DNA of 64,000 nt, from assembly GCA_017601245.1 (NCBI GenBank), contig JAFNJB010000056.1, positions 4,002-68,001 on the forward strand, read 5' to 3'. The stretch is from Candidatus Brockarchaeota archaeon (lineage in GTDB: Archaea; Thermoproteota; EX4484-205; JAAOZP01). The first letter of the stretch is position 1; each line of letters begins with the position of its first letter. The notes below the pieces were generated by a model. It saw only the letters and a program-made list of their open reading frames with translations. It was not told the DNA's origin and searched no databases. Of this stretch, positions 9,352 through 64,000 are shown piece after piece. A program made the position numbers and the translations under genes.

Positions 9352-10555
9352 TCTTAAACGCCTCCGTTAACAATTTGAAAGCCTTCTCAACATGCTCTTG
9401 TGGCAAAACTATTATGAAGTAGGATCCTAGTGTTATGATGCCATGTATGTTTACGCCCTCCTTAGCCAATGGGGCAGATATCCTGTATAATACGCCCGGT
9501 GTTTCATGCAGGTCTGTCCCACGTATTACAATACCTCTTAGGCCCTGTCTAACAGCTAGCCCCACAGAGTCCCCGTCAGCCATGAACACGTCATGCATCC
9601 TCTGAGCATATTCCTCGGGCATATCGCCTTCGAAATAGGCCAGTACCTCCTTATTGTTAGACAAAAAGCCTAGGAACCTACCGTTTTTATTAACCGATTT
9701 AATTATTTCTATTGCCCTCATTACCGAATTCGGACTCCTTCCGACAAAGACCACTGCCGACAATGGTTTTTCGACAATCTCCATGCTTAATGGTGGCATT
9801 GAAGACATTATGAGAGTGCCCTCATTCCTCAGAGTTTTAGAATCGTAACTTATCACCCTGACTTTAAAAGAAGGCGGTAGATAACGGAGCGACGCCTTAT
9901 GTATGAACTTGACGCCCACGTCAGCAAGCGCTGCGAGTTCCTCTGTAGTCAATTCATCAAGTTTCTTCGCCGATTTTATCAACTTTGGATCAGCGGACAT
10001 TATTCCAGATACGCTCGTGACAAGTATTGTATCAGCAGGGTTTAATGCAGATGCTAATATGAAAGCCGTGGAGTCGCTGCCTCCCCTCCCAAGGGTTGTG
10101 ATGTTATTATTCGAGTCCTTACCTATAAAACCTGGGAAAACGACCACATCGTATTCTTTTAAAAGATTCGATACTACCTGCCTTATTCTTCTACAGGACT
10201 CGTCTACAATTATTCTTGCATTACCGTAATTGCTATCCGTTATTATCGGCCACTCTTCGTAAGAGGGGTCTAGGAAAGTCGCCTTAACACCCTTAGCATT
10301 CAAAGTCGAAGAAAAGACTCTTGCACTCGTCCTCTCACCCATGGAAAGTATTTCATCTAACAGCTTTGCATCGTTAGCATCTTTGAAAAGCTGTATGAGA
10401 GTATCTGTTGTAGAACCCATTGCAGAAACTACTACGACAACTTTATTCCCATTCGAGACTTCTTGAGCAACGAGATCAGCAGCATGCTCAACCCTCTCTT
10501 TCGTCGAGAGGGCCGCACCACCGAACTTGACGACAAGAAGACGGTTGGAACTCAT
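9338..10555 (-). CDS. Aspartate kinase (canonical, with C-terminal ACT domains)
   Basis: LVVKFGGAALS, VVVVSAMGSTTD, TTLGRGGSDSTA and SADPKLI amino-acid-kinase motifs. GGAGG Shine-Dalgarno 10-14 nt upstream of ATG. Confidence 0.85.
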   Translation of the reverse strand: MSSNRLLVVKFGGAALSTKERVEHAADLVAQEVSNGNKVVVVVSAMGSTTDTLIQLFKDANDAKLLDEILSMGERTSARVFSSTLNAKGVKATFLDPSYEEWPIITDSNYGNARIIVDESCRRIRQVVSNLLKEYDVVVFPGFIGKDSNNNITTLGRGGSDSTAFILASALNPADTILVTSVSGIMSADPKLIKSAKKLDELTTEELAALADVGVKFIHKASLRYLPPSFKVRVISYDSKTLRNEGTLIMSSMPPLSMEIVEKPLSAVVFVGRSPNSVMRAIEIIKSVNKNGRFLGFLSNNKEVLAYFEGDMPEEYAQRMHDVFMADGDSVGLAVRQGLRGIVIRGTDLHETPGVLYRISAPLAKEGVNIHGIITLGSYFIIVLPQEHVEKAFKLLTEAFKIEED

Positions 10556-49801: not shown

Positions 49802-50355
49802 AACCCTTTCTCAACAACGTATATCCCATCTATGTAAATCCTTGGATCCTTATCCTTAATCTTCGTCGCTAATTCAAACATTGCAGCCACTTGAGTAACC
49901 TCATTCTTATCTAAGCCAGTGACGATTATGTCTTGTCCAGAAACGTTAATGTCAACGTTTTTAAAAGGAACCTTAAAGCATCTAGGCGATTTCTCACCCA
50001 TAAAGTTGTGTATAGAAACCATGTTATGAGACTTATCGTATTTAACGGTCACTGGGAAATGGGAATAGACTATCTTCAGCTTAACCATGTAGCCATGAAC
50101 GACTCCTTCCATCATGTTTCTGACAAGCTTGGCGACTGTTCCAACCAGGGCTTTAAACTTCTTGCCCTTCTTGGTTGAGATTATTCTAAGCGTATTACCT
50201 TCGAGTGTCAGTTTTAAACCAGTATGTGAGAAGTCTTTAGATAATTTCCCAAGGGGGCCTTCGACGATAACGGTAGAACCGTTTAAGCCAATGTTCACTC
50301 CCTCAAGCGCTTCAACGTTTTCACTATAGACAACTTCCATCATGCTAATAGACAT
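49789..50355 (-). CDS. rpl6: 50S ribosomal protein L6
   Basis: uL6 two-domain pattern. Confidence 0.85.
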
Positions 50356-50746
50356 ATGCGATCAACCTCCCCCCGATTTTCTTATTCTTAGCTTCCACAT
50401 GCGTCATTAATCCCTGTGGAGTAGATATAATCAGTAGCCCGATATTGTAAGCGGGGAGAAACATCTTCTCAAATTTCTCAATATCTCGATATGATGTTGG
50501 AAACCTTGGTTTAATTGCTCTACATTTGTTTATCCTTCCTATTAATTGTACTCTAAAAAAGCCTGATTTACCGTCGTCAACGAATTCGAATTCACCAATA
50601 TAGCCGTGTTGTTGCAGTATTTTAAGAACATGTCCTATAAGGTTTGAGGCTGGTGAAATTATACACTCTTTCTTCCTCCTAAGATCGCAGTTTTGAAGCG
50701 TCGTCAACGCATTTGCAAGAGGGTCGTTGAGAGTCAAAGTTAACAC
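50345..50746 (-). CDS. rps8: 30S ribosomal protein S8
   Basis: uS8 pattern. Confidence 0.85.
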
Positions 50747-50747
50747 C

Positions 50748-50930
50748 TCAGCTATACTTCCTGAATCCGAGTAGTGGGGCGACTTCTCTAAAACAGTGCC
50801 TACAATAGTTCAAGCCATACTGTCTTATTATCGGACCGTAAGAGCCGCATCTAATACAGGGTCTAGAACCCTTTCCGAATGTCCTCTTCTTTGGCATTTG
50901 GCGAGCCATGTTAAACAACCTCCACTCCAA
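50748..50930 (-). CDS. rps14: 30S ribosomal protein S14 (zinc type)
   Basis: [25 protein letters not shown]. Confidence 0.8.
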
Positions 50931-51453
50931 ACTTTCCCCTTATGAAGTTTATTGCCTCTTCCTTCGTAATTCTGTGAGATGGACCAACCTTGTTTCTACG
51001 ACGCCTCCTGTACATGATGCGAAAACCGGGTCTGTAGAGTTTTACACAAATATCCATTCCGAAAACACCTATCTTAGGATCGTATTTAACACCGGGGAAT
51101 TGAATATGCTCCTTAATACCGAAGCTGAATACTCCATCTTGGAAGCTTGAAGCCTTTATTTTCCTCCCTATGGCGCTGAAGGCCCTGGATAAGAATTCCT
51201 CTGCATTCTTGCCCCTAAGCGTCACTATGGCAGCGATTGCCTCACGTTTCCTGATTCCGAATTCCTTTATAGTCTTCTTAGCCCTCCTCTCAGCGGGTTT
51301 CATACCAGTTAATAGTGTTAAAACCTGCTTAGCCCTCTCCAAAGGGTCCCCAGGCTTACCTGGACAAATGTTTACAACAACCTTCTCTATTCTTATTTCT
51401 CTCATAGGATTTTCATGTTTCTGCTCTCTCCTTTCTAAAACAGCTTCAGCCAA
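50911..51453 (-). CDS. rpl5: 50S ribosomal protein L5
   Basis: uL5 pattern. Confidence 0.85.
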
Positions 51454-52154
51454 GGCCTATCCCTCCCAATAGCCATGACATAATCCCTTATCGTACTAAC
51501 CTCATCTTCGTTGGTTTTTAGTGTAACAATACTGTCGCGAAGCATGCTTGAACTCGAAATCGATTTCACAATCCCTGTGCTACCGGCATGCTTACCCATG
51601 AACACGTATGCGACGCAACCCTCTGAAAGCGGAGTTTTATCTATTATAGTGCATTCCGGAATCTTCACGAGAAGGGAACCACCCACGTTAAGAGAATAAT
51701 CATCTGTTTCAAAGGTCCTACCGTCCTCAGTTGCAAGCATCAATTTCCCGCGGTAAAGATATTTCTTATTAATCCTACATATCTTCATAGAAGATTCTTC
51801 AGGGGGGATTTCAACTGGTATTAACCTACTCTTATTGTCAACGAGCATTCGATAATGTTTGTTAAGCTCCTTAATGCTTATGACATCCATTAAACCCACT
51901 GGGAATTTATGGGATGTCCTAACAACACCATCTACGAGAATCAATGAGCGTTTTATAATATTCCTCGCCTCCTTACCAGTCTCTGCTAATTTTAAAACAT
52001 CCCTTACAACAACCTGAAGCGGTAGCGAGAGTTTAAGCCGATGGGGTCCGGGTTCAGGTCTTGTGATAAACTTCTTCTCCTTAACGCTAACAACCTGCAT
52101 TGAGACGGGGGCAGCGTATCTCTTTAGGCTCTTAGATCCGCCTTTACGCGCCAC
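51435..52154 (-). CDS. rps4e: 30S ribosomal protein S4e
   Basis: S4e pattern. Confidence 0.85.
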   Translation of the reverse strand: MARKGGSKSLKRYAAPVSMQVVSVKEKKFITRPEPGPHRLKLSLPLQVVVRDVLKLAETGKEARNIIKRSLILVDGVVRTSHKFPVGLMDVISIKELNKHYRMLVDNKSRLIPVEIPPEESSMKICRINKKYLYRGKLMLATEDGRTFETDDYSLNVGGSLLVKIPECTIIDKTPLSEGCVAYVFMGKHAGSTGIVKSISSSSMLRDSIVTLKTNEDEVSTIRDYVMAIGRDRPWLKLF

Positions 52155-52491
52155 CTTCAGAAACCTCCTTGACAGTCTTACGTTTCCTCTCTATGATGCG
52201 TTGCCTCCACTTATCCTTCTCATCGATTTTGATTAGTATAACCGAGTTTATGGGTATTGGAACCAGCCTCTGCTCTCCGCGTGCATTCTCCCTGTAAACA
52301 CCTGAAATGTAAATACGGCCCCTGTTTCTATCTACTCTACTCACATCCCCCTCAATGCCCTTGTAGTCCCCCCTTATTATAAGAACCCTGTCCCCAGTCC
52401 TCACTGGCAGACTTCTAAAACCGTACTTAGCCCTCAACTCGCGACTAAGATGGACAGAAGAAGCCTTGTAGGCTAAGTGTCTCTCATTCAT
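52144..52491 (-). CDS. rpl24: 50S ribosomal protein L24
   Basis: uL24 KOW domain. Confidence 0.8.
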   Translation of the reverse strand: MNERHLAYKASSVHLSRELRAKYGFRSLPVRTGDRVLIIRGDYKGIEGDVSRVDRNRGRIYISGVYRENARGEQRLVPIPINSVILIKIDEKDKWRQRIIERKRKTVKEVSEGGA

Positions 52492-52496
52492 ATTTA

Positions 52497-52934
52497 TTAC
52501 ACCACCATTGAGGCAAGTGCTGAGAGCTTAGGCCAGAGGTCAACAGCCTCCTTCGCCACAGGCCCTTTTATCTCAGTGCCCTTGATATCACCCTCTGGAG
52601 TTACTAGTACTGCAGCATTGTCTTCGAAAACAACCCTCAGCCCATCCCTCCTTCTAACGGGGTATCGTTGCCTTATTATTATCGCCTTCATCATCTTATT
52701 CTTAAGGTCTGGCGTACCCTTCTTAACAGCAACCGTCACCAAGTCGCCTACTTTCGCAGATGGTCTTCGCCTCAGCCTGCTACCAGTCCTATAGACCTGT
52801 ATTATTCTCAAAACCTTCGCTCCAGAATTGTCCGCACACACCAGATTAGCGCCAACCGGAAGGCCACGGGAACCATGCAGCCTATACTCTAATATTCCCT
52901 TTGCGGATACTGCCCTAGACTTCTTCATCGCCAT
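52497..52934 (-). CDS. rpl14: 50S ribosomal protein L14
   Basis: uL14 pattern. Confidence 0.9.
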   Translation of the reverse strand: MAMKKSRAVSAKGILEYRLHGSRGLPVGANLVCADNSGAKVLRIIQVYRTGSRLRRRPSAKVGDLVTVAVKKGTPDLKNKMMKAIIIRQRYPVRRRDGLRVVFEDNAAVLVTPEGDIKGTEIKGPVAKEAVDLWPKLSALASMVV

Positions 52935-52937
52935 TTT

Positions 52938-53261
52938 TTAGCTCACCTTCCCCAACACTACGAAATGAACAGTCTTGCTCAATGGTCTTGTTTCCCCTAT
53001 TATAACTCTATCCCCGGTTCTAGCGGCGATACAGGGAGGGTTATGAGATGGGATTCTACTCCTCTTCCTCATGTAACGCTTATACTTCGGGACGTAATGC
53101 AAGTATTCCCTCATTACTATCACGGTGTTCTTCATCTTATCGGAGACTACAATACCCTCGAATACGCTTCCCCTTACCCTAACGTTCCCGTGGAAGGGAC
53201 ACTTCTTGTCGTCACACTTGTTCTCTGGAGGCTTTAGCCCGAGGTCTTTAAGGAAGCTCAT
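52938..53261 (-). CDS. rps17: 30S ribosomal protein S17
   Basis: uS17 OB fold. Confidence 0.85.
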   Translation of the reverse strand: MSFLKDLGLKPPENKCDDKKCPFHGNVRVRGSVFEGIVVSDKMKNTVIVMREYLHYVPKYKRYMRKRSRIPSHNPPCIAARTGDRVIIGETRPLSKTVHFVVLGKVS

Positions 53262-53527
53262 GGGTCAATCCTCCCAGTCCTATCCTCTGGCCTAAACGCT
53301 ATCGACTCTCCTTTTAAAACAACCTCTTTATCTCCGAGTTTGAATACGAAAACCCTGTGGTGCTTTGGGATGGTAAGGCGCCGTCCTTTCTCAGAGATTA
53401 TGATTAGAGTATTCTTCGTTTCCCAAACCACTTTCCCGGAAAAGACCGTAGTGTTGTCTTTAGGGTCGATAACCCTGACGGGAAGCCCTATCAGCTCGTG
53501 GTAAGCAAGGTTACTGGGCGTCCTCAT
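53258..53527 (-). CDS. rnp1: Ribonuclease P protein component 1 (Rpp29/Pop4)
   Basis: Sm-like 89-aa protein at the conserved L29-S17 position. Confidence 0.7.
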   Translation of the reverse strand: MRTPSNLAYHELIGLPVRVIDPKDNTTVFSGKVVWETKNTLIIISEKGRRLTIPKHHRVFVFKLGDKEVVLKGESIAFRPEDRTGRIDP

Positions 53528-53724
53528 TTCAGTGCCTCCTCCCTTTCTACGGTTAGTATCCTAGCTATAGCTCGTTTCAACTCTCTAACAGCCTTAGTAT
53601 TCTCCTCAAGGCCGGAGGCTGCTCTCATCCTCGCTATCATCAACTCGTTGCGAAGCTCTTGGAGCTTCTTAAGCCTCTCCTCCTTACTCATTTTCCTTAT
53701 CTCACTGGCCTTCAGCCTTGCCAA
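53524..53724 (-). CDS. rpl29: 50S ribosomal protein L29
   Basis: uL29 helical pattern. Confidence 0.8.
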   Translation of the reverse strand: MARLKASEIRKMSKEERLKKLQELRNELMIARMRAASGLEENTKAVRELKRAIARILTVEREEALK

Positions 53725-54352
53725 CTTCCACAGCCTCCTGCGGCGCCTCTACTAACTGCACTTCATCCGGAGGAACAGCCTCTTTCAATATTTTGACCTT
53801 GACACCCATGACTCCCTGCGGCAGTAGTACACTTGCCTTACCTACTTTGACATACTTCATCGCAGGGTCTCCGGCTGCAGGCATATAGCCGAAGCTAAAC
53901 TTCTCAAACCTGGCCCTATCCGTGGTAAGCTTACCAGCTATCCTTATCTCGCAGCCTATCGCACCCGCGGCAGCTACCCTACGTAGAGCAACCCTAGCAG
54001 CCCTACGGTATTTAACACCTTTCTCAAGAGCCCTACATATCATTTGAGCAACAAGCTGGGGCTCTAAATCGGGATTCTCAACCTCCGCCACGTTTACCTG
54101 CGGGTTCTCAAGATTGAACTTCTCCTTGAGGATGTCTTGAATCTCCCTAATCCTCCTACCATCCGGGCCTATGACGAACCCAGGTTTGCTCGTGTATATT
54201 GTTACTACAAGACCCATTGGGACATTAAGAACCTTACAGCCAACATACCCCCCGTCTTTCAAATATTCTTTCAAGAAATCGTCGATCTGCTGATGGAGCT
54301 TACACAGGTTGAGAACTCTCTTGTAAAATATTAGCTTCTTCTTACTCGACAA
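53702..54352 (-). CDS. rps3: 30S ribosomal protein S3
   Basis: KH domain plus uS3 C-terminus. Confidence 0.9.
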   Translation of the reverse strand: MSSKKKLIFYKRVLNLCKLHQQIDDFLKEYLKDGGYVGCKVLNVPMGLVVTIYTSKPGFVIGPDGRRIREIQDILKEKFNLENPQVNVAEVENPDLEPQLVAQMICRALEKGVKYRRAARVALRRVAAAGAIGCEIRIAGKLTTDRARFEKFSFGYMPAAGDPAMKYVKVGKASVLLPQGVMGVKVKILKEAVPPDEVQLVEAPQEAVEVGKAEGQ

Positions 54353-54353
54353 T

Positions 54354-54869
54354 TCAACCAGCCTCCTCTACAGCCAGGACCTCTACGTGCGTGAGCGTTT
54401 CAAACCTGGGCGTGGCTCTCCCAAAAGCCCTGGGCATGTATCTTTTCAACTTCCTACCCCTGTGGACAACAACTCCCTTTATCCTCATCCTATCCGGGGA
54501 GAGGCCCTTGTACTCAGCATTAGCCTCAAGCTGGGATATTAGCCTAAGGAAGAAACGGGCCGTTTTAACAGGATATCTCCCCGAGTCGAATCCTTCAATC
54601 CCCCTCCTATGTGGAACCTTCTTCCTATACCTCCGGAAGGGGACGGGGGTCTCCATTCTCACCACGGCCTCAAGCCTCCTCCTAGCCTCTGGAATCTTAA
54701 GACCCTTGATGAACCTAGCCACTTCTACGGCATGCTTAGGGGATATCCTAACCTCTCTGAGACTAGCCTTAGCCGAACGCGACTTATCCACTTCCACCAA
54801 ACTATACTTGAAACTCGGCAAACCCAACACCGGTTTAGCTCGCGGAGGCGAGACAGAAATAGACACCAA
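54354..54869 (-). CDS. rpl22: 50S ribosomal protein L22
   Basis: uL22 pattern. Confidence 0.85.
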   Translation of the reverse strand: MVSISVSPPRAKPVLGLPSFKYSLVEVDKSRSAKASLREVRISPKHAVEVARFIKGLKIPEARRRLEAVVRMETPVPFRRYRKKVPHRRGIEGFDSGRYPVKTARFFLRLISQLEANAEYKGLSPDRMRIKGVVVHRGRKLKRYMPRAFGRATPRFETLTHVEVLAVEEAG

Positions 54870-54938
54870 TTATTAAATATTTTGTCATCCTATAAGGAAG
54901 GCTTAAATCCCCATATGTAGCCATTTGAACGATGAAAA

Positions 54939-55160
54939 ATGAGTAAGGAAGCTGAGGCTGAGCCCAGCATACGTAGAGCTGTTAACGTCGACAAGCTTGA
55001 GAAAACCCCGGACGGTTATGTTGCACATGTAAAGTCGCTCGAAGGGTTGAGGAAGATCGCCACCATACTGAAGAAGCCCATGGTCTCCGTTAAGGAGAGT
55101 GGGGAATACCTAGTCATCGACGATAGGATAACCTACATCTGGAAGGAAACCAGCAAGTAA
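54939..55160 (+). CDS. Hypothetical 73-aa protein encoded antisense within the S19-L22 spacer
   Basis: Clean ORF with balanced composition. AT-rich upstream, T-rich tract downstream (55170-55190). Confidence 0.35.
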   Translation: MSKEAEAEPSIRRAVNVDKLEKTPDGYVAHVKSLEGLRKIATILKKPMVSVKESGEYLVIDDRITYIWKETSK

Positions 55161-55188
55161 TACGTTTTAGAACCCTTTCTATTTTTTC

Positions 55189-55599
55189 TTATTTCAAAGG
55201 CACATAAGTAGACGACTTGCTAGCGCCAACACCCGGCTTACCGTGAACAACCCTCTTGTTCGTTATCGCAAACTCGCCAAGGTAGTGCCCAACCTTGTCT
55301 AGGGTTATCTCAACCGGTATGAAGTCCTTACCGTTATGAACCTCTATCGTTAAGCCAACCATCTCAGGTAGAATAGGCATATCCCTCCTATGAGTCCTTA
55401 TCCTCTTCGTCTGAGTACCCGTCTTAGCCATCTCCGCCTTAATCTTCCTAATCTTCTCCAGAAGCTTCCTGTTCTCAGGATGCAAACCCCTCCTCAGAGT
55501 CCTCCTAATACGGGCTGGGAGGAGCCTCATCAACTCGTTCATCGAAAGACTATTCAGCTCCTCGAGCGTCTTACCCCTATACGTTGGAATGAGAGACAT
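55189..55599 (-). CDS. rps19: 30S ribosomal protein S19
   Basis: uS19 signature ...[34 protein letters not shown]. Confidence 0.85.
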
Positions 55600-55774
55600 C
55601 CACTACTTTTCCTAACCTCGGGGTATAATAACCTTTCCCTTGAATAAGCCGGTTATTTAGCAATATTAGGACAAGGACTTAGTATATAGCGAGTATTACT
55701 ATCAATGGTACAAAGCACTTTTACATAAGCATAATACGGTCGATTGCCTTAGACACTTGTGTATTAAGACTTAA

Positions 55775-56488
55775 ATGTTAGGCTTCTTCAGGGAGGAGAA
55801 GCAGATGCCTCATAAAAATGCAGTTGCATATGGCACAGCATCGTGTATAATGGGAATCATGATACTTTTTGCAAGCATCTTTTTGTTTTCACAATACATT
55901 TCTAAAACGGCGAATCAGTACTTAGCAATAACAGTAATAATAATAATGCTAACAGCATCTTCTTTAGTGATTCTATCTGGAGCATATTTAAGGCACTTAG
56001 GCAAGACTTGGCCAGTTACAGTCCCTATAAAGACAGCAGGAGGAACTAGTCCGAAAAAGCAGTTTCAAAAAACCCCTTCTTTGCAAAATGTGACATATCA
56101 TGAGACAGTATCTAAAAGCCAAGAGGCTACTAAGATTTGTCCTAAATGTGGGACTGCAAACGATGCAAAATACAAGTTCTGCTTTAGATGCGGAACAATT
56201 TTATTTGAAATTCCTATGGAAACACTGCCAAGTACTGAGATTGAAGTTGAAGAATTTGTTTTCTGTCAAGTCTGTGGTAAAAAGCTAGCAAAGAATTCGA
56301 AATACTGCAGTTCTTGTGGAGCACCACTATCTGGGGCCGAAACGCTTCCTCCACCACCCCCACCACCAGACATAGAGAAAAGATTAGAAGAATTAGAAGA
56401 AAAGATTAGGAGTTTAGAGGAATCGTTAAAGAAAATCACGGAATCGAAGAGTTTTGAAAACAAAAATGAAACAAGCATATTTGAATAG
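55775..56488 (+). CDS. Membrane protein with two zinc-ribbons, poly-Pro linker and C-terminal coiled coil
   Basis: Two TM helices. CPKCG..(14)..CFRCG and CQVCG..(11)..CSSCG. PPPPPPP. EELEEKIRSLEESLKK. Confidence 0.5.
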   Translation: MLGFFREEKQMPHKNAVAYGTASCIMGIMILFASIFLFSQYISKTANQYLAITVIIIMLTASSLVILSGAYLRHLGKTWPVTVPIKTAGGTSPKKQFQKTPSLQNVTYHETVSKSQEATKICPKCGTANDAKYKFCFRCGTILFEIPMETLPSTEIEVEEFVFCQVCGKKLAKNSKYCSSCGAPLSGAETLPPPPPPPDIEKRLEELEEKIRSLEESLKKITESKSFENKNETSIFE

Positions 56489-56556
56489 AAGGATACAAAG
56501 AATACAATCATGAAAAATTGTTAAACCTGCAAGTTGGAAATAGTAGATAAGAAAGC

Positions 56557-57263
56557 TTAACATGGTAAAGAAAAACTCTCGCCTGTTAATCGAAAACAGC
56601 TTCTCAGCTTACCCGTTAATATAGGTAGCGAAAACCACAACCCTATGATGTGAAACCACATTTTAACGTTATACTGCTTATGAATATCATATGCTTTTTT
56701 AAAGAATTCACCCCATGCTTTCATAAAACTATTCATAGAATCAATGCGAGAGTTAATAAGTTGTTTAGGCTCCATCTGTTCCTCCCCAATGGCTAGACCA
56801 GTTCTTCTGATATCTTCTTCCGCTATCAGTCTATCTTCAGGATTATCCTTTGAGAACAGATTTTTAGTAAGCAATATCTCCGGCTCACTTCCTATCCCAT
56901 AAATCTCTAGGACTTCAACAGGCCGGAAAATCTTTAAGCCCAGGTCCTAAGGTCCTATGATCAACCATTATGTTGTCTCGACACTTCCTAATCATAACTT
57001 TTACCCTATTCATTAAGTAGGAGACAATTGGATTCTTCTTAGCCTCCTCAACCTCTTCTTCCCCAAGCGTAAGCAGAATCGATAATTGCAGGAATATACT
57101 TCAATCCCTTACTTTTCATGTACCGAGATCCTATTACCCTCATCCACATCTTCACTTTTTCTACTATATTCCTCGGAGTGTTAGGTGCAGGCTTAATCAC
57201 CATCCAGTATTCAATCATTCTTTCCTGCTCTCCATATTTCTCTCCACTTATAAAAACCTCCAC
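56557..57263 (-). pseudogene. Decayed paralog (two frame fragments) of the 196-aa gene at 59180-59770
   Basis: 57048-57263 matches N-terminus MIEYWMVIKPAP... and 56557-56874 matches C-terminus ...DSMNSFMKAWGEFFKKAYDIHKQYNVKMWFHIIGL. The middle is out of frame. The last 104 nt are identical to the intact copy. Confidence 0.5.
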
Positions 57264-57432
57264 TATGTCTGGTTATTGTCTCATAAGCTCAACCAGGTAG
57301 TTAAGTAATTCCTTGGTTTCGGAAGTCTGGGGAGCCTGGAGGAAGCTGTAGACCAGCATCCAGCCATTTCTTATAAAAAATGAACCATAGCCAGTAACAT
57401 TTTTAAGCAAAAATGAACAATATAACATTATA

Positions 57433-58764
57433 ATGGAGCCACTTTCCAAAAGGTTTGTGGAGGACAGGTTGAAGGTTCAGAATCCCTGGTGGGAATTGAA
57501 AACTATTCCCGCGGAACTCGCAGGCAGGAGGAGAGATGTGGATTTTGAAGAGATGTCTGAGGGAAAGGAGATTAGAATCCTGTTCGGAGTCAGGAGATGT
57601 GGGAAGTCAACCCTGCTTTTTCAAATCATGAGTCACCTGGTTGAGCAGGGTGTAGACCCGTTAAACCTGCTGATGTTAAACTTCGATTTTGAAAGGTTTA
57701 GAAAAATTCCTCTCGATGAGGTTTTCAAAGCGTATTTGGAGTTATCGGGAGCCTCGCCGAGAAACGTCAACCTGTTTCTTGATGAAGTTCATTTCCGGGA
57801 GGATTGGCCACGTTTTACGAGAAGATTGTACGACATGAAAGAGGTTAACAGGATTTTCATCACGGATTCTTCCTCAAAGCTCCTGAAAGGCGAGTATGCA
57901 AGGATTCTAACTGGAAGAACGATTAAACACGAGGTTTTTCCGCTCTCATTCAGAGAGTTCTTGAGTTTCCGCGGGATCTCAGCGGAGGTTAAGCCTCTTT
58001 CCTACAAGACTGAAGCTAAGGTTAAAAACCTGTTGCGAGAATACTTAGAGTTCGGCGGGTTCCCGGAGGTTGTTCTTAAGAATGAAGTCCTCAGGTACAG
58101 GATTCTCCAAGAGTATTTCAGCGACATAATCTACAAAGATGTGACGGAGAGGTTTAACCTTGATGCAAGCATTACGTATGAAGTTGCAAAGTTCCTAATT
58201 ACAAACGTGTCTAAATACGTTACTCTAAGGTCGTTGAGAAAAGGTTTTGGAATAGGCCTGGAGACAGCGTCTAGGATTCTGCAGGCCTTAGAGGAGGTTA
58301 GGCTGATAAATCTCTTAAGACCATTCTCGCTTTCCCTAAAATCTCAAGTTAAGGGGATAAAGAAAGCATACGTTATAGACACCGGACTGTCGAACGCAGC
58401 CGGGTTCAGGTTTAGCGAGAACTTTGGGAAACTGGTTGAAAACACAGTCTTCCTGCACTTGAGGAGAATGCAGTCTAAAAATCCTCTGCTCGAGATTTTC
58501 TACTGGAGGGACTACCAGCAGAACGAGGTTGACTTCGTTGTTAAGAACGGGGTTGAAGTTAAACGATTGATCCAAGTAACTTATGCCTCTGGCAGGGATG
58601 AGATTGAGAAAAGAGAGATAAGAGCTTTAACTAAGGCAAGCGACGAACTAGGATGCAATGAACTCTCAATAATAACCTGGGATTATGAGGATGAAATCAA
58701 AACCAACGATAAAACGATAGAATGTATCCCGTTATGGAAATGGCTGCTTTCCAAGCCTCAGTGA
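57433..58764 (+). CDS. AAA+ ATPase of the DUF4143/COG1373 family
   Basis: Walker A GVRRCGKST, Walker B LFLDEVH, C-terminal DUF4143-like module. Confidence 0.7.
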   Translation: MEPLSKRFVEDRLKVQNPWWELKTIPAELAGRRRDVDFEEMSEGKEIRILFGVRRCGKSTLLFQIMSHLVEQGVDPLNLLMLNFDFERFRKIPLDEVFKAYLELSGASPRNVNLFLDEVHFREDWPRFTRRLYDMKEVNRIFITDSSSKLLKGEYARILTGRTIKHEVFPLSFREFLSFRGISAEVKPLSYKTEAKVKNLLREYLEFGGFPEVVLKNEVLRYRILQEYFSDIIYKDVTERFNLDASITYEVAKFLITNVSKYVTLRSLRKGFGIGLETASRILQALEEVRLINLLRPFSLSLKSQVKGIKKAYVIDTGLSNAAGFRFSENFGKLVENTVFLHLRRMQSKNPLLEIFYWRDYQQNEVDFVVKNGVEVKRLIQVTYASGRDEIEKREIRALTKASDELGCNELSIITWDYEDEIKTNDKTIECIPLWKWLLSKPQ

Positions 58765-59004
58765 CAGCATGAAACAGTCCCTGTCTCTACCACGAGTTTA
58801 TTATACAGTTCTCTTACCGTCTTCTCTATTCTTTTTCCATCATTCTTAACAACGTGTGAAAACTTGTTAATAAGAGCATACGGAAAGGGGAAAAATTGGA
58901 AGGGGTTACATTATTCAGCGTAGAGCACAAACAGTTTTAAAATGATCTAAATGGATACAACAAACCGTAGGAATCGTAGAATTAAGAAAAAGTATAGAAA
59001 TATT

Positions 59005-59130
59005 TATCCAGATGCTTGTCTAACCTTCTTCCTACCAGTCTTCCTGGGAGCAATCAAACCAACCTTAGCACCAGGCGGAGCATTACGGCTAACAGAAGTA
59101 GAACCCCCTACGTGGTAGTGATAATATTCT
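59005..59130 (-). pseudogene. rpl2: Relic of the 3' end of ribosomal protein L2 (about 40 codons)
   Basis: Own translation: EYYHYHVGGSTSVSRNAPPGAKVGLIAPRKTGRKKVRQASG*. Matches the universal uL2 C-terminus (H.HGGG...STVSRNAPPG.KVG.IAARRTGR). Bounded by stop codons. Confidence 0.5.
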
Positions 59131-59179
59131 TACGAGAAAGTATGTGCTCGCATCCAAATCGCATGCTTACTTCACTCAG

Positions 59180-59770
59180 CTATAATCCTATGATGTGAAA
59201 CCACATTTTAACGTTATACTGCTTATGAATATCATATGCTTTTTTAAAGAATTCACCCCATGCTTTCATAAAACTATTCATAGAATCAATATGATGGTCG
59301 ATACGTTGATCAGAAGTCATCTGCTTCTCTTGACAAGGTATTCCGAATCTCCTAATATCCTCTTCAGCTATCATTCTGTCCTCTAGATTATCTTTAGAGA
59401 AGAAAACCTTCGTTAGCAGCATCTTTAATTCATCATCTACTTCTTTAACCTCTAAGACTTCGATTGGCCAGAAAATCTTTAAACCAGGACCATTAGTTTT
59501 TGGATCAACTCTAATATTGTCTGGGCATTTCCTGATAATAACCTTAACTTTATTCATCAAGTAAGAAACATAAGGATCCTTCTTAACTTCCTCGACTTCT
59601 TTCTCTCCATAAGCATAAGCCGAGCGAATAATAGCAGGAACATATTTCAATCTCTTTCTCTCCATAAGCCAAGAAGAACCCGTTGCAGGCATCCATATTT
59701 TCTCTAACTCCTCTTTTATTTTCCCTCGTATTTTAGGCGCAGGCTTAATCACCATCCAGTATTCGGTCAT
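59180..59770 (-). CDS. Hypothetical 196-aa protein, co-transcribed downstream partner of the giant gene
   Basis: 6-nt spacing from giant ORF stop. Has a decayed paralog 2.5 kb away. Confidence 0.5.
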   Translation of the reverse strand: MTEYWMVIKPAPKIRGKIKEELEKIWMPATGSSWLMERKRLKYVPAIIRSAYAYGEKEVEEVKKDPYVSYLMNKVKVIIRKCPDNIRVDPKTNGPGLKIFWPIEVLEVKEVDDELKMLLTKVFFSKDNLEDRMIAEEDIRRFGIPCQEKQMTSDQRIDHHIDSMNSFMKAWGEFFKKAYDIHKQYNVKMWFHIIGL

Positions 59771-59776
59771 TTTACT

Positions 59777-62700
59777 CTATCCTTCATATTTCACGCCACC
59801 TATAAAAACCTCTATAACGTCTGGATATCTCCTCATGAGCTCAACTAAATATTCAAATAGCCTCTCAGCTTCTGGCTCTTGGGGAGCGTGCAGAAAGCTG
59901 TAAATCAGCTTCCAATTATTTTCATCAGCAATTTCAAGATATTTATCAGCTTGGCCTATAAGGTTTCCTGATTCTTCATCTCCGTGTTTACATTCTACTA
60001 TTGCTATCCTTTTGTCTGGTGTTTCCGTTTTAAAATCGAAGTATACATATCTCCTATTACCTAAGTCATATAGACTCTCCTCCTCCAGAATGATATACCC
60101 TAATTTTTCTAAGAGTTCTTTTGTAAACAGCTTTGCAGCAACATGTTGAGACTCGCTTAACACTTTATCTGGAAGAGGCTTGCTTAAGCTTATTACCTTC
60201 CTATGAATCCCCTTGTTATCCTTATATTCAACAACTATTGTATCTTTAAATGCGTACTCGAAAACTTGATTATTTTCACTCAACTTAATCTTAAGCTCCC
60301 CATAGTATTTGATCGGGTTTATTTCCGGTGCTCGTGTTCTTATCGCTAAAGCCAGCTTTGAGGATACTGATTTACCGTCCCTGCCTACATCAATACGAAA
60401 CAGGATTTTTTCACTACTATGCAGAGTTACCTCGAGAATTGGACCATACCCGCTGAGCTCTCTGAAACGGGCTTCGCTTACCTTGAAACCGTTACCGTCG
60501 CTCATACCCTCGACACCGTAGAACTTCAAGTATTCCCCGGAGAGTTCTGCTCTAACACTTCCATCAGAGCTTACTGCGCTAAGCCCGTTCTTCCTTACGA
60601 TTAGTATTCCGAGAACCTCTTCAGCCTCTTTAATCTTGAACTCTGCGTCCGCGCTCTGAGTCCACGCTGAATCTACTCCACCGTCAACCCTACGGTATAC
60701 TATTCCAAGTACCGCGTCCCTATTGCTCAGCTCTTCTCCAAGCCTACGATACTCTTCGCCTATAATTCTCTTCATCATCCCGCTTACGTCAAGGTACTTC
60801 TGGCCACTCCTTATCTCTATGACGTGCTCATCATTGCTTAAGAACACTATTGGTTCTTGAGGGATCCTCCTGTTTAGAGTTATGATTCCACCATACCTGT
60901 CTGAGCCCTCCTCCCTGAGGAATAGGAGCCTTGCCACCTCGCCTCCAGCACCATCTCTCACGGTTTTCAGCTCAACCTCGCCTATCATCGTTCTCCCCCC
61001 ACCGGAGACCAGCATCAGCCTTCCTCCCTCAGTTACTCTGAGCTCGAGCTGCTCCCCGTCTGCATTCGTAACCATGAACCTGATTAGGGCTGAGCCTGCG
61101 TACTCATCCAGTCTCCCCGCGAGCCCCTCAATAATCCTGCCGGTTCTAGTATCAACTAAGTATGCATTGAAGCCGTCTGCCTTCACGAATTTCGACGGGT
61201 ATCTGGCAAGGAAATCATCTATGGTCGCCGGCTTCAAGACTGTTAAGTATGTGCAGCCACTTCTTATCCTGCCGGTTGTTTCCACGGAGGAGAAGCGCAG
61301 GCTCTCCTGCCCATTCACAATCCTCCTTATCTTGTCTACGATAATGCTGCCATCATCAGGATCGTGGACTAAAACAAGGTAAACACCCTCGGGGATATTC
61401 TTAGGAAGCAACAGCCTATCCGAATCGTGGGAGGTTGCAATGAATATTATTGCTCCGCTTTCAAGACTTGCATGCCACGTGTTGAGAAGCCCAGGATCCT
61501 TAACTATAGTATTCAAGAAGGCTTTTGCAACAGTTTCTCCGTAGCTCTCTTTGACTACCAGGTAGGTGTTTAATAGCCTAAGCCTGTTTTCAAAGCTTTC
61601 CCCAACCTTAGCCAGGGCTCTCCCAATGTTTTCAAGCTCTTCCGGGTTTAGCTCAACTGTTCTGGAGAGGAGCCTAGTAGCCTTAGGCAGAGACCACTGG
61701 TCTCCGAGCCCCAGCCAGTTTAGAAGTTCTTCTCCAAACATTCTCGACTTCCGAAATACTCTGCCTATGTCTTCGACAGCCTCGTCTCCGCAACCCGCCC
61801 AAACCGAGACGATTACTCTAACAACCCTACCGCCTTCGACTCTCAGCTCCTCCAGAGAGTATTCTTCAAAGACCAGCCCGATGACGTCCAGTATCTTCCT
61901 CGCGCTCTCCCTTCTCGGAACATTCTCTAGCACTTGCTTCGAAAGCCTTGAGGAAGCGTCAATGGTTTCCTCGAGAATGGAGGGGTCTTCTCCCACCTTC
62001 TCCAGCAGGCTTCCAATGGCTTCGCCGAACCCCCTGCTATACTTGTTTCCCAGAAGGAGGTCTACGATCCTTCCTGCGGAGCCCCTTATCCTCCCCCAGG
62101 TGAGAGTAATAGCATCCCATACGGCTGGTGTTACCCAGTTGTAGACCCCCCTTGCTATTGTTCTCAGTATCTGGCTTGTTGTTAATCTTTGACCTATTCT
62201 CTCAGCCTTCACTCTGTTAACCATTACGAAAAGCGTGACGTAGAGCATACAGGAGACTACTGCGCCTGTGACTCTTCCCCTCGCGTATCCTATCTTATAC
62301 TGCTTCTCAAGCTCGTTCTCAGCTATTGGTTCCTTTAGACCCAGTGCTATTCTTATCTCATCCAGGCTGACGCCGAAGGCGAGGTTTGAGAAGACGTTAA
62401 GCCCTATGTTGCTCATAGTTTCATTTGCTTCTCTCCTCGACGCTACTGCAAGCTCCATGCATTCGGCAGCATGCTCAACCTCGCCTCTGGCCAGGAATTC
62501 TCCAGCTCGTTTTTCAAAGGCCTCAGCGAAGGCGAGCATTTCCTCCCTAGCTTTGTAGGCTTCTTCAACATCTGAAGCCACTTCCATGAGGTTCGACAAT
62601 ACGTCAATACCCAGCATGAGATAGTAAGCATATCTCACGTATGCCTTTGGGATCAGGAAGCTTACTGCAATCATCATACCAGCGGTAATAGCTATCCCCG

Positions 62701-64000
62701 GCAGCTTTGTTAGCAGGCCATCCCAGAAGCCCTTCCAAAACACCGCCGTCTTAAGGGCGAGGGAAACCTTTACTGCCGCAACTACTCTACCATCTTTAAC
62801 GAGTTCGAAAACAGCCTCTCCAACCGCGGGCTCCCGCTGGATTAGTAAAACGGAGCCCGTAGAAGTTTTGTTTAGAGTAATGCTCCCGCTGCTCTCTCTG
62901 GTCTGAGTAAAGAAGAGGAAGTGGTTTGTAGCCGTCTTAAGCCTAAGCGAGTAGCTTACGTTAGTGTTTGCATAATTCCTCAGGGCTATGCCGTGTAGTA
63001 ACTCCCCCCTGTTAATTTTCAGAGGACTGTAGAATAGTTTGATGGATTTGCATTCGCCGATTGTCCTACTCGTTACAGTGTATCCCCAATCCACCTCGCC
63101 CGAGTCGATGAAAATGCTGTTCCCCCTCTTCCACCCGAGCCTAGCCAACTGCTCATACTCTTCGCTTGAAACCCATACCGTCTCATTGCTTACTTTTTCT
63201 CCGACGAACCTTACACTCCAACCCATAGCTCCGCTCTGGTTAAGCTTCCCGTAGAAGGGATGTTGGGAAAGAACCTTCAACTCGTCTTCGCTCAAAACCC
63301 TGCTTAGGATCGTTTTCTCAATGCCCGTGGTCTTATTGAAACACAGCAGAAACGTGTTCTTGAAGTCGTCTACGATTAATTCCACCGTTAAGCTTCCACC
63401 ATTAGTCCACTTTATCCAATGCTCCGAGACATACTCGCCCTCCCTCAAGACAAGCCAGGGTAGAACTATCCATCCGCCACCGTGCCCTATAACCAGCTTA
63501 ACCCGCTCAGTATCCTTCGTAACCTTCAGGTTCTTACGCATATGGAGCCAATAGTAGTCAACCTCCCTCCCGTTGAAATTAATCCTGTAAGCCTTATGCT
63601 CTAGAATCTCCAAGCTTAACACAATGCCGTAGAGGGGCATGTTGAAGAATAACCGTGAGGAAACAGGACTACCCAGGTCCGGGAGGTAAGCATTGATCAC
63701 ATTACCTTTAAAATCGCCATCTACGCTTAACACTGCCTTCGATAAACCACCTGTCTCGCCAGCGTAAGTTACGTTGTAGAGCTTGCGGGCATTTAGCGAA
63801 ATATTATAGTACCTTATGCAGGTCACGTTGTAAAGCTTGACTCTCTTCTTAACACCCTTAACCTCGTAGTAAGCAGAGGGTAGAGGGAAATTACAGACTA
63901 ACGGGATTTCAACAGAAACCTCCCCGTCGTCAAGATTACGTGAAACACGAAGATTGGAGTAGTCGACTAAAACACGATTGTCATTGATTTGAAGCTCCCT
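59777..64000 (-). CDS. Giant membrane protein (longer than 1400 aa, N-terminus beyond window) with sequon-rich extracellular N-domain, TM helices and cytoplasmic C-terminal PD-(D/E)xK nuclease-like domain
   Basis: Frame stays open from 63826 to 64000, so the track GTG start is internal. Hydrophobic helices GIAITAGMMIAVSFLIP, YYLMLGIDVLSNL and VTGAVVSCMLYVTLFVMV. C-terminus YVYFDF..PDKRIAIVECKHG..QADKY. Confidence 0.7.
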   Translation of the reverse strand, partial: RELQINDNRVLVDYSNLRVSRNLDDGEVSVEIPLVCNFPLPSAYYEVKGVKKRVKLYNVTCIRYYNISLNARKLYNVTYAGETGGLSKAVLSVDGDFKGNVINAYLPDLGSPVSSRLFFNMPLYGIVLSLEILEHKAYRINFNGREVDYYWLHMRKNLKVTKDTERVKLVIGHGGGWIVLPWLVLREGEYVSEHWIKWTNGGSLTVELIVDDFKNTFLLCFNKTTGIEKTILSRVLSEDELKVLSQHPFYGKLNQSGAMGWSVRFVGEKVSNETVWVSSEEYEQLARLGWKRGNSIFIDSGEVDWGYTVTSRTIGECKSIKLFYSPLKINRGELLHGIALRNYANTNVSYSLRLKTATNHFLFFTQTRESSGSITLNKTSTGSVLLIQREPAVGEAVFELVKDGRVVAAVKVSLALKTAVFWKGFWDGLLTKLPGIAITAGMMIAVSFLIPKAYVRYAYYLMLGIDVLSNLMEVASDVEEAYKAREEMLAFAEAFEKRAGEFLARGEVEHAAECMELAVASRREANETMSNIGLNVFSNLAFGVSLDEIRIALGLKEPIAENELEKQYKIGYARGRVTGAVVSCMLYVTLFVMVNRVKAERIGQRLTTSQILRTIARGVYNWVTPAVWDAITLTWGRIRGSAGRIVDLLLGNKYSRGFGEAIGSLLEKVGEDPSILEETIDASSRLSKQVLENVPRRESARKILDVIGLVFEEYSLEELRVEGGRVVRVIVSVWAGCGDEAVEDIGRVFRKSRMFGEELLNWLGLGDQWSLPKATRLLSRTVELNPEELENIGRALAKVGESFENRLRLLNTYLVVKESYGETVAKAFLNTIVKDPGLLNTWHASLESGAIIFIATSHDSDRLLLPKNIPEGVYLVLVHDPDDGSIIVDKIRRIVNGQESLRFSSVETTGRIRSGCTYLTVLKPATIDDFLARYPSKFVKADGFNAYLVDTRTGRIIEGLAGRLDEYAGSALIRFMVTNADGEQLELRVTEGGRLMLVSGGGRTMIGEVELKTVRDGAGGEVARLLFLREEGSDRYGGIITLNRRIPQEPIVFLSNDEHVIEIRSGQKYLDVSGMMKRIIGEEYRRLGEELSNRDAVLGIVYRRVDGGVDSAWTQSADAEFKIKEAEEVLGILIVRKNGLSAVSSDGSVRAELSGEYLKFYGVEGMSDGNGFKVSEARFRELSGYGPILEVTLHSSEKILFRIDVGRDGKSVSSKLALAIRTRAPEINPIKYYGELKIKLSENNQVFEYAFKDTIVVEYKDNKGIHRKVISLSKPLPDKVLSESQHVAAKLFTKELLEKLGYIILEEESLYDLGNRRYVYFDFKTETPDKRIAIVECKHGDEESGNLIGQADKYLEIADENNWKLIYSFLHAPQEPEAERLFEYLVELMRRYPDVIEVFIGGVKYEG

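Follow-up and report, generated by a model that had tools for sequence, protein, structure and literature searches.

Our analysis of a 64,000-nucleotide (nt) stretch of DNA from a Candidatus Brockarchaeota archaeon (contig JAFNJB010000056.1; the whole stretch is called the window below) showed that two diverged copies of a gene for a 196-amino-acid (aa) protein, here called p196, share a perfect direct repeat of 104 nt. One copy is intact (copy B) and the other decayed (copy A); each is preceded by the end of a gene for a giant membrane protein, and an ATPase gene lies between them. Nucleotide comparisons with related loci show the transfer of the tract to have run from copy B to copy A, and recent gene conversion or recombination, already proposed in a first-pass annotation of this DNA, is the best reading of it. 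We consider it likely, taking all parts together, that the two copies belong to two old cassettes, each combining a nuclease-like tip of the giant protein with p196, that B has converted A, that recombination drives the mobility of the cassettes and, with less weight, that p196 may neutralise a toxic tip.

The 104-nt tract and the direction of its transfer

An exact-match search sets the two copies of the tract 2545 nt apart (Table 1), with no third copy elsewhere in the window on either strand. The first-pass annotation had found this repeat and its length; its coordinates for the first copy and its offset were off by one. In a gapped alignment, homology between the two copies spans about 57369-56635 in copy A and 59921-59180 in copy B, a unit in which the entire p196 gene is preceded by a short spacer and, before that, by the final ~45 codons of the giant gene. 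The repeat unit as first described was thus correct for the p196 gene and missed the giant-gene tail. Homology stops at the p196 stop codon, and the sequence 3' of it is unrelated. The claim that the loci are homologous beyond the repeat holds: outside the tract they are 68.7% identical over 630 columns, and their second-longest identical run, at the 5' end of both p196 copies, is 26 nt. When mismatch positions were shuffled, none of 200,000 trials gave a run of 104 nt or more (the longest was 54 nt), and the analytic expectation for such a run is ~1e-14, so that chance is excluded as its origin. Identity had been said to end exactly at the stop codon; it breaks off 4 nt earlier (GGATTATAG vs GGGTTGTGG), with two silent changes ahead of the stop position.

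Copy A has decayed in several ways. A -2 frameshift near 57065 and a +1 frameshift near 56958 divide its p196 gene into three frame segments, rather than the two frames first described; it also has two in-frame 3-nt deletions, and its TAG stop is replaced by TGG. The remnant of the giant-gene tail contains an in-frame TAA, starts downstream of the catalytic D...ExK residues of the tip, and lies inside a block that is 93% identical to L002 and L021 (labels of the form L0xx denote the related loci compared, and W_A and W_B the window's copies A and B).

The direction of transfer follows from the relatives of the two copies. Sixteen family members and fragments were aligned as nucleotides; identity of the other members to the tract is 55-76%, or 64-76% when full-length genes are taken, the same level as in the rest of the gene. 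The body of W_A is nearest to copy 2 of L008 (75%); its identity to L002_up is 72% in the 5' part (79% by blastn) and to the p196 of L027 70-81% across the gene body, and it groups with these three and L014. W_B groups with L002_full, L012 and L019, and the B-type p196 of L019 is 98% identical to it in protein sequence. Since A and B types each occur in several species, they are old cassette types, and what had been called a duplicated gene is not the product of a recent duplication; recent tandem duplication followed by fast divergence was rejected on this ground. A-type genes are 71-80% identical to the tract. The L019 gene differs from W_B at 8 of 480 positions in the body of the gene and at only 3 of 104 in the tract, which is therefore native to B, copy A being the recipient. 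Conversion or recombination is favoured by these observations together: the moderate identity of the other members to the tract, the separate lineages of the two copies and the B-type origin of the tract. Unusually fast evolution of p196 was also considered and rejected, as its 72-74% identity to L002 equals core-genome divergence; the anomaly in the comparison with L002 is the 93%-identical ATPase block, with p196 standing at core-genome divergence.

We propose that the window holds two cassettes of one kind, the nuclease tip of the giant with its coupled p196, of which B would be live and A an orphan. The tract would be a recent non-reciprocal transfer from B to A, either by ectopic gene conversion or by heteroduplex repair during recombination, and the conversion would have begun at the edge of homology, the stop codon. 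By itself the tract is an ordinary, textbook footprint of gene conversion.

Patches of the same sort occur in related genomes. L002 and L003, which are separate assemblies, share an 80-nt perfect repeat between codons ~108-135 of the full p196 gene and a decayed fragment beyond the same ATPase. L021 has perfect tracts of 77 nt and 57 nt, one in p196 and the other in the giant tail. The copies of L008 are ~70% identical in the gene and 92-100% identical from its last 35 nt through ~300 nt downstream, and in L022 two copies in inverted orientation, 68% identical over their whole length, contain patches close to identity in the tail and at the 3' end. This patchy homogenisation fits recurrent recombination between cassettes, and homologous recombination would probably be behind both the short patches and the reciprocal exchanges described below. 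The varying positions of the patches argue against a fixed attachment (att) core, a functional RNA or a one-off assembly error.

Lone fragments of the last ~48 p196 codons were seen in L014 (6057-6209) and L008 (7864-8007), in both cases adjoining PIN/MazE toxin-antitoxin cassettes. There are hints here that the 3' end of p196 is repeatedly an endpoint of recombination.

These fragments, together with the raised identity at the 3' end of paired p196 genes in several genomes (L008, L022), could also be explained if selection on DNA or RNA, acting on an att site, an antisense RNA or a regulatory element, had kept the tract identical. We find this hardly credible: the same stretch is only 64-76% identical across the family, and the perfect tracts of L002/L003 and L021 occupy other parts of the gene. 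No constant identical core, as would be expected of an att-type element, emerges from L002/L003, L021, L008 and L022, whose perfect tracts occupy different positions. Rfam and tRNA scans over 55600-60000 and 50000-64000 found nothing, which counts against an RNA; and there is no integrase-like gene in or beside the cassette, the ATPase gene being the only intact one between the repeats, nor any integrase among the called genes of the related islands.

It is very improbable that the tract is an artefact by which two strain variants or loci were joined through the 104-nt stretch in metagenome assembly. The window does come from a metagenome contig (Joint Genome Institute source), the tract is shorter than a read, and the contig of L020, 98% identical to the window, ends at its position 10529 (window 59242), inside the tract, as if assemblers struggled there. 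The break in L020 is, however, what a genuine repeat would itself cause, and is expected if the repeat also exists in L020. Moreover, the order p196, ATPase, tip remnant and p196 fragment is also found in three other assemblies (L002, L003 and L021), both flanks of each tract copy continue as diverged homologue with no switch of context, and copy A, being a decayed gene of the A type, is no strain variant of B.

Exchange of the ATPase cassette between species

The first-pass annotation recognised the DUF4143 ATPase gene between the two copies and overlooked a fragment of the uL2 gene (rpl2) that lies there as well. The ATPase matches the PADLOC candidate defence family PDC-S01 (E 4e-100), and its gene is 93% identical in nucleotides to those of L002 and L019. 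The ribosomal-protein genes of the window are 72-77% identical to those of L002 and 80% identical to those of L019. Against L019, window 59114-57756 reaches 93% identity and window 59845-59049, the p196-B block, 95.5%. Blocks of 93-95.5% identity next to ribosomal-protein genes of 72-80% identity imply that the cassette has moved between species.

Alignments with L019 and L020 show that the uL2 fragment and the ~100 nt of native spacer that come with it duplicate the 3' end of the genuine rpl2. In L020, which is of the same species as the window and supplied the sequence past the window end (98% identical), the gene order is L4 - L23 - L2 - three restriction-modification (R-M) genes - giant - p196. 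From p196-B onward the window continues with L2 fragment - spacer - ATPase (on the opposite strand) - A-type tail - p196-A pseudogene - Zn-ribbon gene - S19. The order in L019 is L2 - spacer - ATPase (truncated) - A-type tail - B-type p196 - 60 nt - L2 fragment - 325-aa gene - S19, a circular permutation of the window block. Informative sites in L019 are A-type at 28 of 38 upstream of 59729 and B-type at ~140 of 143 downstream, which sets the switch from A to B between 59729 and 59727, adjoining the 26-nt identity.

A junction that is A-type upstream and B-type downstream is expected on a circle released by crossover between direct repeats, and the reciprocal tandem duplication would contain it as well. 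The L2 sequence that flanks the block on either side in L019 is what a circle would leave on integrating through its L2 fragment. Excision of the ATPase cassette by an A x B crossover is supported by this arrangement of sequences, and the first-pass suggestion that recombination between the copies could mobilise the cassette stands in this form; inversion, the other outcome it had named, is impossible for direct repeats. We propose that a crossover near the 5' ends of both p196 copies would release or capture a unit of ~2.5 kb (p196 - 60 nt - rpl2 3' fragment - spacer - ATPase - tip remnant), which would recombine via the rpl2 fragment into the rpl2 3' end of another genome.

Two considerations tell against this part of our account. 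Non-crossover conversion is indistinguishable from crossover with heteroduplex repair, and the reverse history, in which an L019-like unit integrated into the resident A-type p196 of the window's ancestor, is equally possible; it is mildly favoured by the A-type p196 that follows the closest relative of the window's giant. Either history requires recombination between p196 repeats and transfer between species.

It has also to be asked whether the ATPase cassette entered p196 by Campbell-type integration, the tract being the crossover junction itself, with no separate conversion. The cassette is clearly mobile between species and known in circular permutation, and the tract abuts the end of homology as if strand exchange had begun there. 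We nevertheless regard this as unlikely. None of the boundaries of the shared blocks (57233, 58782 or 59114, and ~59727) coincides with the tract, and the only documented A/B breakpoint, that of L019, is at the 5' end of p196. A crossover between copies that are 69% identical would, besides, need heteroduplex repair, which is conversion, for both to match.

Three further observations concern these segments. The uL2 fragment is 93% identical to the real rpl2 end of L019, another species, and only 87% identical to that of L020, its own species. Just 5' of the ATPase start codon are two 25-nt direct repeats, 57365-57389 and 57398-57422 (CATTTCTTATAAAAAATGAACCATA and CATTTTTAAGCAAAAATGAACAATA), 33 nt apart and within the horizontally shared block, which may be a promoter or operator. 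The 325-aa gene of L019 (10400-11377, minus strand), between the L2 fragment and rps19, has an EVK-type motif and possibly encodes a PD-(D/E)xK protein; it has no PADLOC match.

The giant protein, its nuclease-like tip and p196

The giant gene runs off the window end, and the full protein has at least 1486 aa, the length of a 100% identical database copy (P0016). Its homologues are 45-80% identical to it over the first ~800 residues, after which identity falls abruptly to 10-25%, leaving a polymorphic C-terminal part of ~650 aa. At the nucleotide level the closest full-length relative, P0017 of L027, is 82-90% identical from the window end to ~60400 and 66-74% identical over the last ~620 nt, and it is followed by an A-type p196, as against the B-type in the window. 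Where the C-terminus of the giant is unrelated (P0021, P0024), so is the gene that follows, which encodes 215-238 aa; where it is distantly related (P0018), the next gene is a p196 homologue of 30% identity. Tip type and downstream gene type match across the giants, and tip and partner therefore change together; within the p196-type loci, A and B partners likewise track the tip. The 215-238-aa genes (type II) were considered as p196 homologues and rejected, the profile search giving ~1 bit.

The last 273 aa of the giant were modelled with AlphaFold2 (AF2) at a mean confidence (pLDDT) of 91.2 as a beta-rich domain followed by an alpha-beta-beta-beta-alpha-beta core, with a D in strand 2 and ExK in strand 3. 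D188, E202 and K204 of this segment (codons at about 60035-60037, 59993-59995 and 59987-59989) are invariant in the alignment columns. The best matches in the PDB by Foldseek are SfsA, NucS/EndoMS, the Cas4-like ACE1 and Bax1, all of them PD-(D/E)xK nucleases, with probabilities of 0.99-1.0. The model thus supports the prediction that the giant ends in a PD-(D/E)xK nuclease fold. The tip has no match among the Tox-REase Pfam families. The giant itself has no match in Pfam, NCBIfam or PADLOC, a PDB sequence search with it was empty, and a scan of metagenome contigs with its N-terminus gave no confirmed relative.

By hydropathy, the giant has an N-terminal signal or anchor and three further hydrophobic segments. 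Glycosylation sequons (N-x-S/T), counted in window 59777-64000 and in P0017, P0018, P0021, P0024, P0025 and P0027, are ~3-fold enriched in the N-terminal ~500 aa and above expectation also in the loop between transmembrane segments TM3 and TM4, before the last such segment; in the C-terminal region of 700-800 aa there are none in all six homologues examined, where 2-4 would be expected in each. The pattern may reflect either topology or avoidance of glycosylation.

The relatives of p196 amount to 15 proteins at 90% clustering, all from metagenome-assembled genomes of Thermoproteota, Brockarchaeota or 'Nitrososphaerota', and a profile search of 1.84 billion proteins yielded 56 representative clusters. 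There is no significant match to p196 in Pfam, NCBIfam or PADLOC, and the AF2 model of p196-B (pLDDT 90.5) has no fold match in the PDB or BFVD. The first-pass annotation raised the question whether the family always pairs with the giant, and it does: in every related locus the giant gene or its C-terminal remnant lies directly 5' of p196, with a gap of 5-6 nt or a short stop/start overlap at the junction. In different genomes the remnants are truncated at giant residues 953, 1084, 1141, 1175, 1261 and 1289, p196 itself being usually intact. The truncated open reading frames upstream were considered as functional standalone nuclease genes, and this was rejected: they are mostly remnants, with inconsistent starts, and several cut through domains. 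The versions of 248 aa and 393 aa are putative remnants.

From this organisation we infer, weakly, that the giant's tip may be a toxic nuclease and that p196 may neutralise it as an immunity protein or antitoxin. A number of results pull the other way. Neither the giant nor p196 contains a known secretion or delivery domain or belongs to a toxin (Tox) or immunity (Imm) family known to Pfam, NCBIfam or PADLOC. The Foldseek E-values of the tip are modest (~1e-3) and its global TM-scores are low because the model has two domains. Hydropathy and sequons suggest, in addition, that the C-terminal region of the giant may be cytoplasmic, and a cytoplasmic tip fits an effector that acts within the cell and its antitoxin at least as well as an exported toxin.

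A serious alternative, possible if doubtful, is that the pair is not an intercellular toxin-immunity pair but an in-cell module for defence or abortive infection, or for self/non-self recognition, with a surface sensor and a cytoplasmic nuclease held in check by p196. The island around it also contains R-M systems, PIN/MazE pairs and the PADLOC candidate defence ATPase, and a delivery domain was not detected in the giant. Sequons in the N-terminal part and the TM3-TM4 loop, with none in the C-terminal part, would together with the four hydrophobic segments place the nuclease inside the cell. This topology derives from hydropathy alone, however; giant and p196 are both without a PADLOC match; and arrays of an orphan truncated tip with an intact partner, as well as the swapping of whole tips, are hallmarks of polymorphic toxins (PMC3482391, PMC5361080).

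Taking these elements further, we suggest tentatively, and as a combination that may well not hold in full, an undescribed conflict system specific to archaea. It would consist of a sequon-rich giant with a swappable SfsA/NucS-like nuclease, a partner whose fold is absent from the PDB, and orphan cassettes between rpl2 and rps19, and would move with no recombinase by circularising through its own repeated ends and re-entering through the rpl2 fragment.

The rpl2-rps19 island and comparison with known systems

Within the ribosomal-protein supercluster of Brockarchaeota-like Thermoproteota, the stretch from rpl2 to rps19 forms a variable island, bounded in the window by rps19 and, beyond the window end, by rpl2, as seen in L020. 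In the regions covered (window 55600-64000, L006 7050-8967, L014 5331-6001 and L020 3111-5323) it contains R-M systems, PIN/MazE pairs, the DUF4143 ATPase and giant/p196 cassettes. Between rps19 and copy A the window encodes a 237-aa protein (55775-56488, plus strand) that combines a double zinc ribbon with an N-terminal membrane segment and a run of prolines. The edge of locus L015 has a similar zinc-ribbon gene, ~10 kb upstream of another giant paralogue. An open reading frame of ~73 aa on the opposite strand between rps19 and rpl22 is conserved in several genomes (window 54939-55160, plus strand; L019 12173-12394; L014 7915-8142).

Table 1. Coordinates of the cassettes and neighbouring features in the window.
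Feature	Position	Strand	Basis or remark
rps19	55189-55599	-	conserved island boundary
p196-A pseudogene	56635-57222	-	body of A-type lineage
Tract in copy A	56642-56745	-	recipient of conversion; inside pseudogene
26-nt identity, A side	57187-57212	-	5' end of p196-A; exact match with 59739-59764
Giant-gene C-terminus remnant (A-type tail, last ~45 codons) and spacer	57223-57369	-	alignment
Horizontally exchanged block	57233-58782		93% identical to L002 10669-12215; ATPase, its upstream region and A-type tail
AAA_14/DUF4143 ATPase	57433-58764	+	Pfam match; cargo between copies A and B
Orphan uL2 gene fragment, last 38 codons	59007-59120	-	tblastn, 84% identity; 60 nt downstream of p196-B
p196-B, intact 196-aa gene	59180-59770	-	open reading frame; putative immunity- or antitoxin-like partner of the nuclease tip
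Tract in p196-B	59187-59290	-	donor; about codons 161-195 of intact p196
26-nt identity, B side	59739-59764	-	5' end of p196-B; beside the L019 A/B breakpoint; putative crossover site
Giant membrane protein gene	59777-64000	-	runs off window end
C-terminal PD-(D/E)xK nuclease-like domain (predicted)	59780-60169	-	invariant D...ExK; AF2 model

The tract exposes an unannotated two-gene family in hot-spring Thermoproteota/Brockarchaeota, and marks the rpl2-rps19 gap as a hotspot of defence and conflict genes in this clade. If the proposed function is true, the family would provide a new nuclease tip and a new partner fold, as well as a simple, recombinase-free transfer of cassettes between species for which a conserved ribosomal-protein gene serves as landing pad.

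As a recombination footprint the tract resembles ectopic conversion between gene and pseudogene or between paralogues, in which a short perfect tract likewise lies in diverged direct repeats, the functional copy overwrites the decayed one and one tract end falls at the boundary of homology; there is no essential difference. The layout of the predicted tip, a beta-rich N-terminal domain followed by a core, is the two-domain PD-(D/E)xK layout of SfsA and NucS (EndoMS), but sequence similarity to them is undetectable, and here the domains form the end of a 1500-aa membrane protein that has p196 as its partner.

Among archaeal systems, the closest parallel is with VARTIG of Thermococcales (Makarova et al., 2021, PMC8416519), also a large surface protein whose C-terminal part is hypervariable through interspecies recombination and whose downstream genes vary in a polymorphic-toxin-like organisation. 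The giant differs in having no Ig-domain Pfam match and a tip with a predicted nuclease fold in place of an Ig domain; it belongs to a different phylum and has a single, tightly coupled partner gene.

The fate of copy A recalls the orphan immunity arrays of the Vibrio cholerae type VI secretion system (T6SS), where new effector-immunity modules are acquired horizontally through homologous recombination (Kirchberger et al., 2017, PMC5361080). There, as here, the old effector is displaced and its old partner gene kept downstream, in a mosaic structure with no specific integration site. In the window, by contrast, there is no T6SS; the displaced partner, copy A, has already decayed into a pseudogene, and the modules are separated by an unrelated ATPase cassette as well as an rpl2 fragment.

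The organisation of the locus is like that of a polymorphic toxin-immunity locus, a kind of system considered rare in archaea and hardly reported in the archaeal lineage of the host (PMC3482391). With the bacterial contact-dependent inhibition (CDI; cdiA-CT/cdiI) and Rhs loci (Zhang et al., 2012, PMC3482391) it shares a constant N-terminal body with a swappable C-terminal tip, a tip with a restriction-endonuclease fold (a common toxin type there, a predicted fold here), a partner gene directly downstream that changes along with the tip, tip fragments further downstream that are cut short at the 5' end and accompanied by partner genes, and replacement via homologous recombination at the 3' end of the main gene. 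Unlike those loci, the giant has no RHS, filamentous haemagglutinin, T5, T6 or T7 secretion, PrsW or HINT features and the pair falls in no known Tox or Imm family; its body is that of a membrane protein, has about four hydrophobic segments and is rich in glycosylation sequons; and the orphans here retain no piece of the constant region. We have not filed giant and p196 as a member of the polymorphic toxin systems because they lack a delivery module and membership of a known Tox or Imm family; on the analysis presented here, the pair nonetheless appears to work like one.

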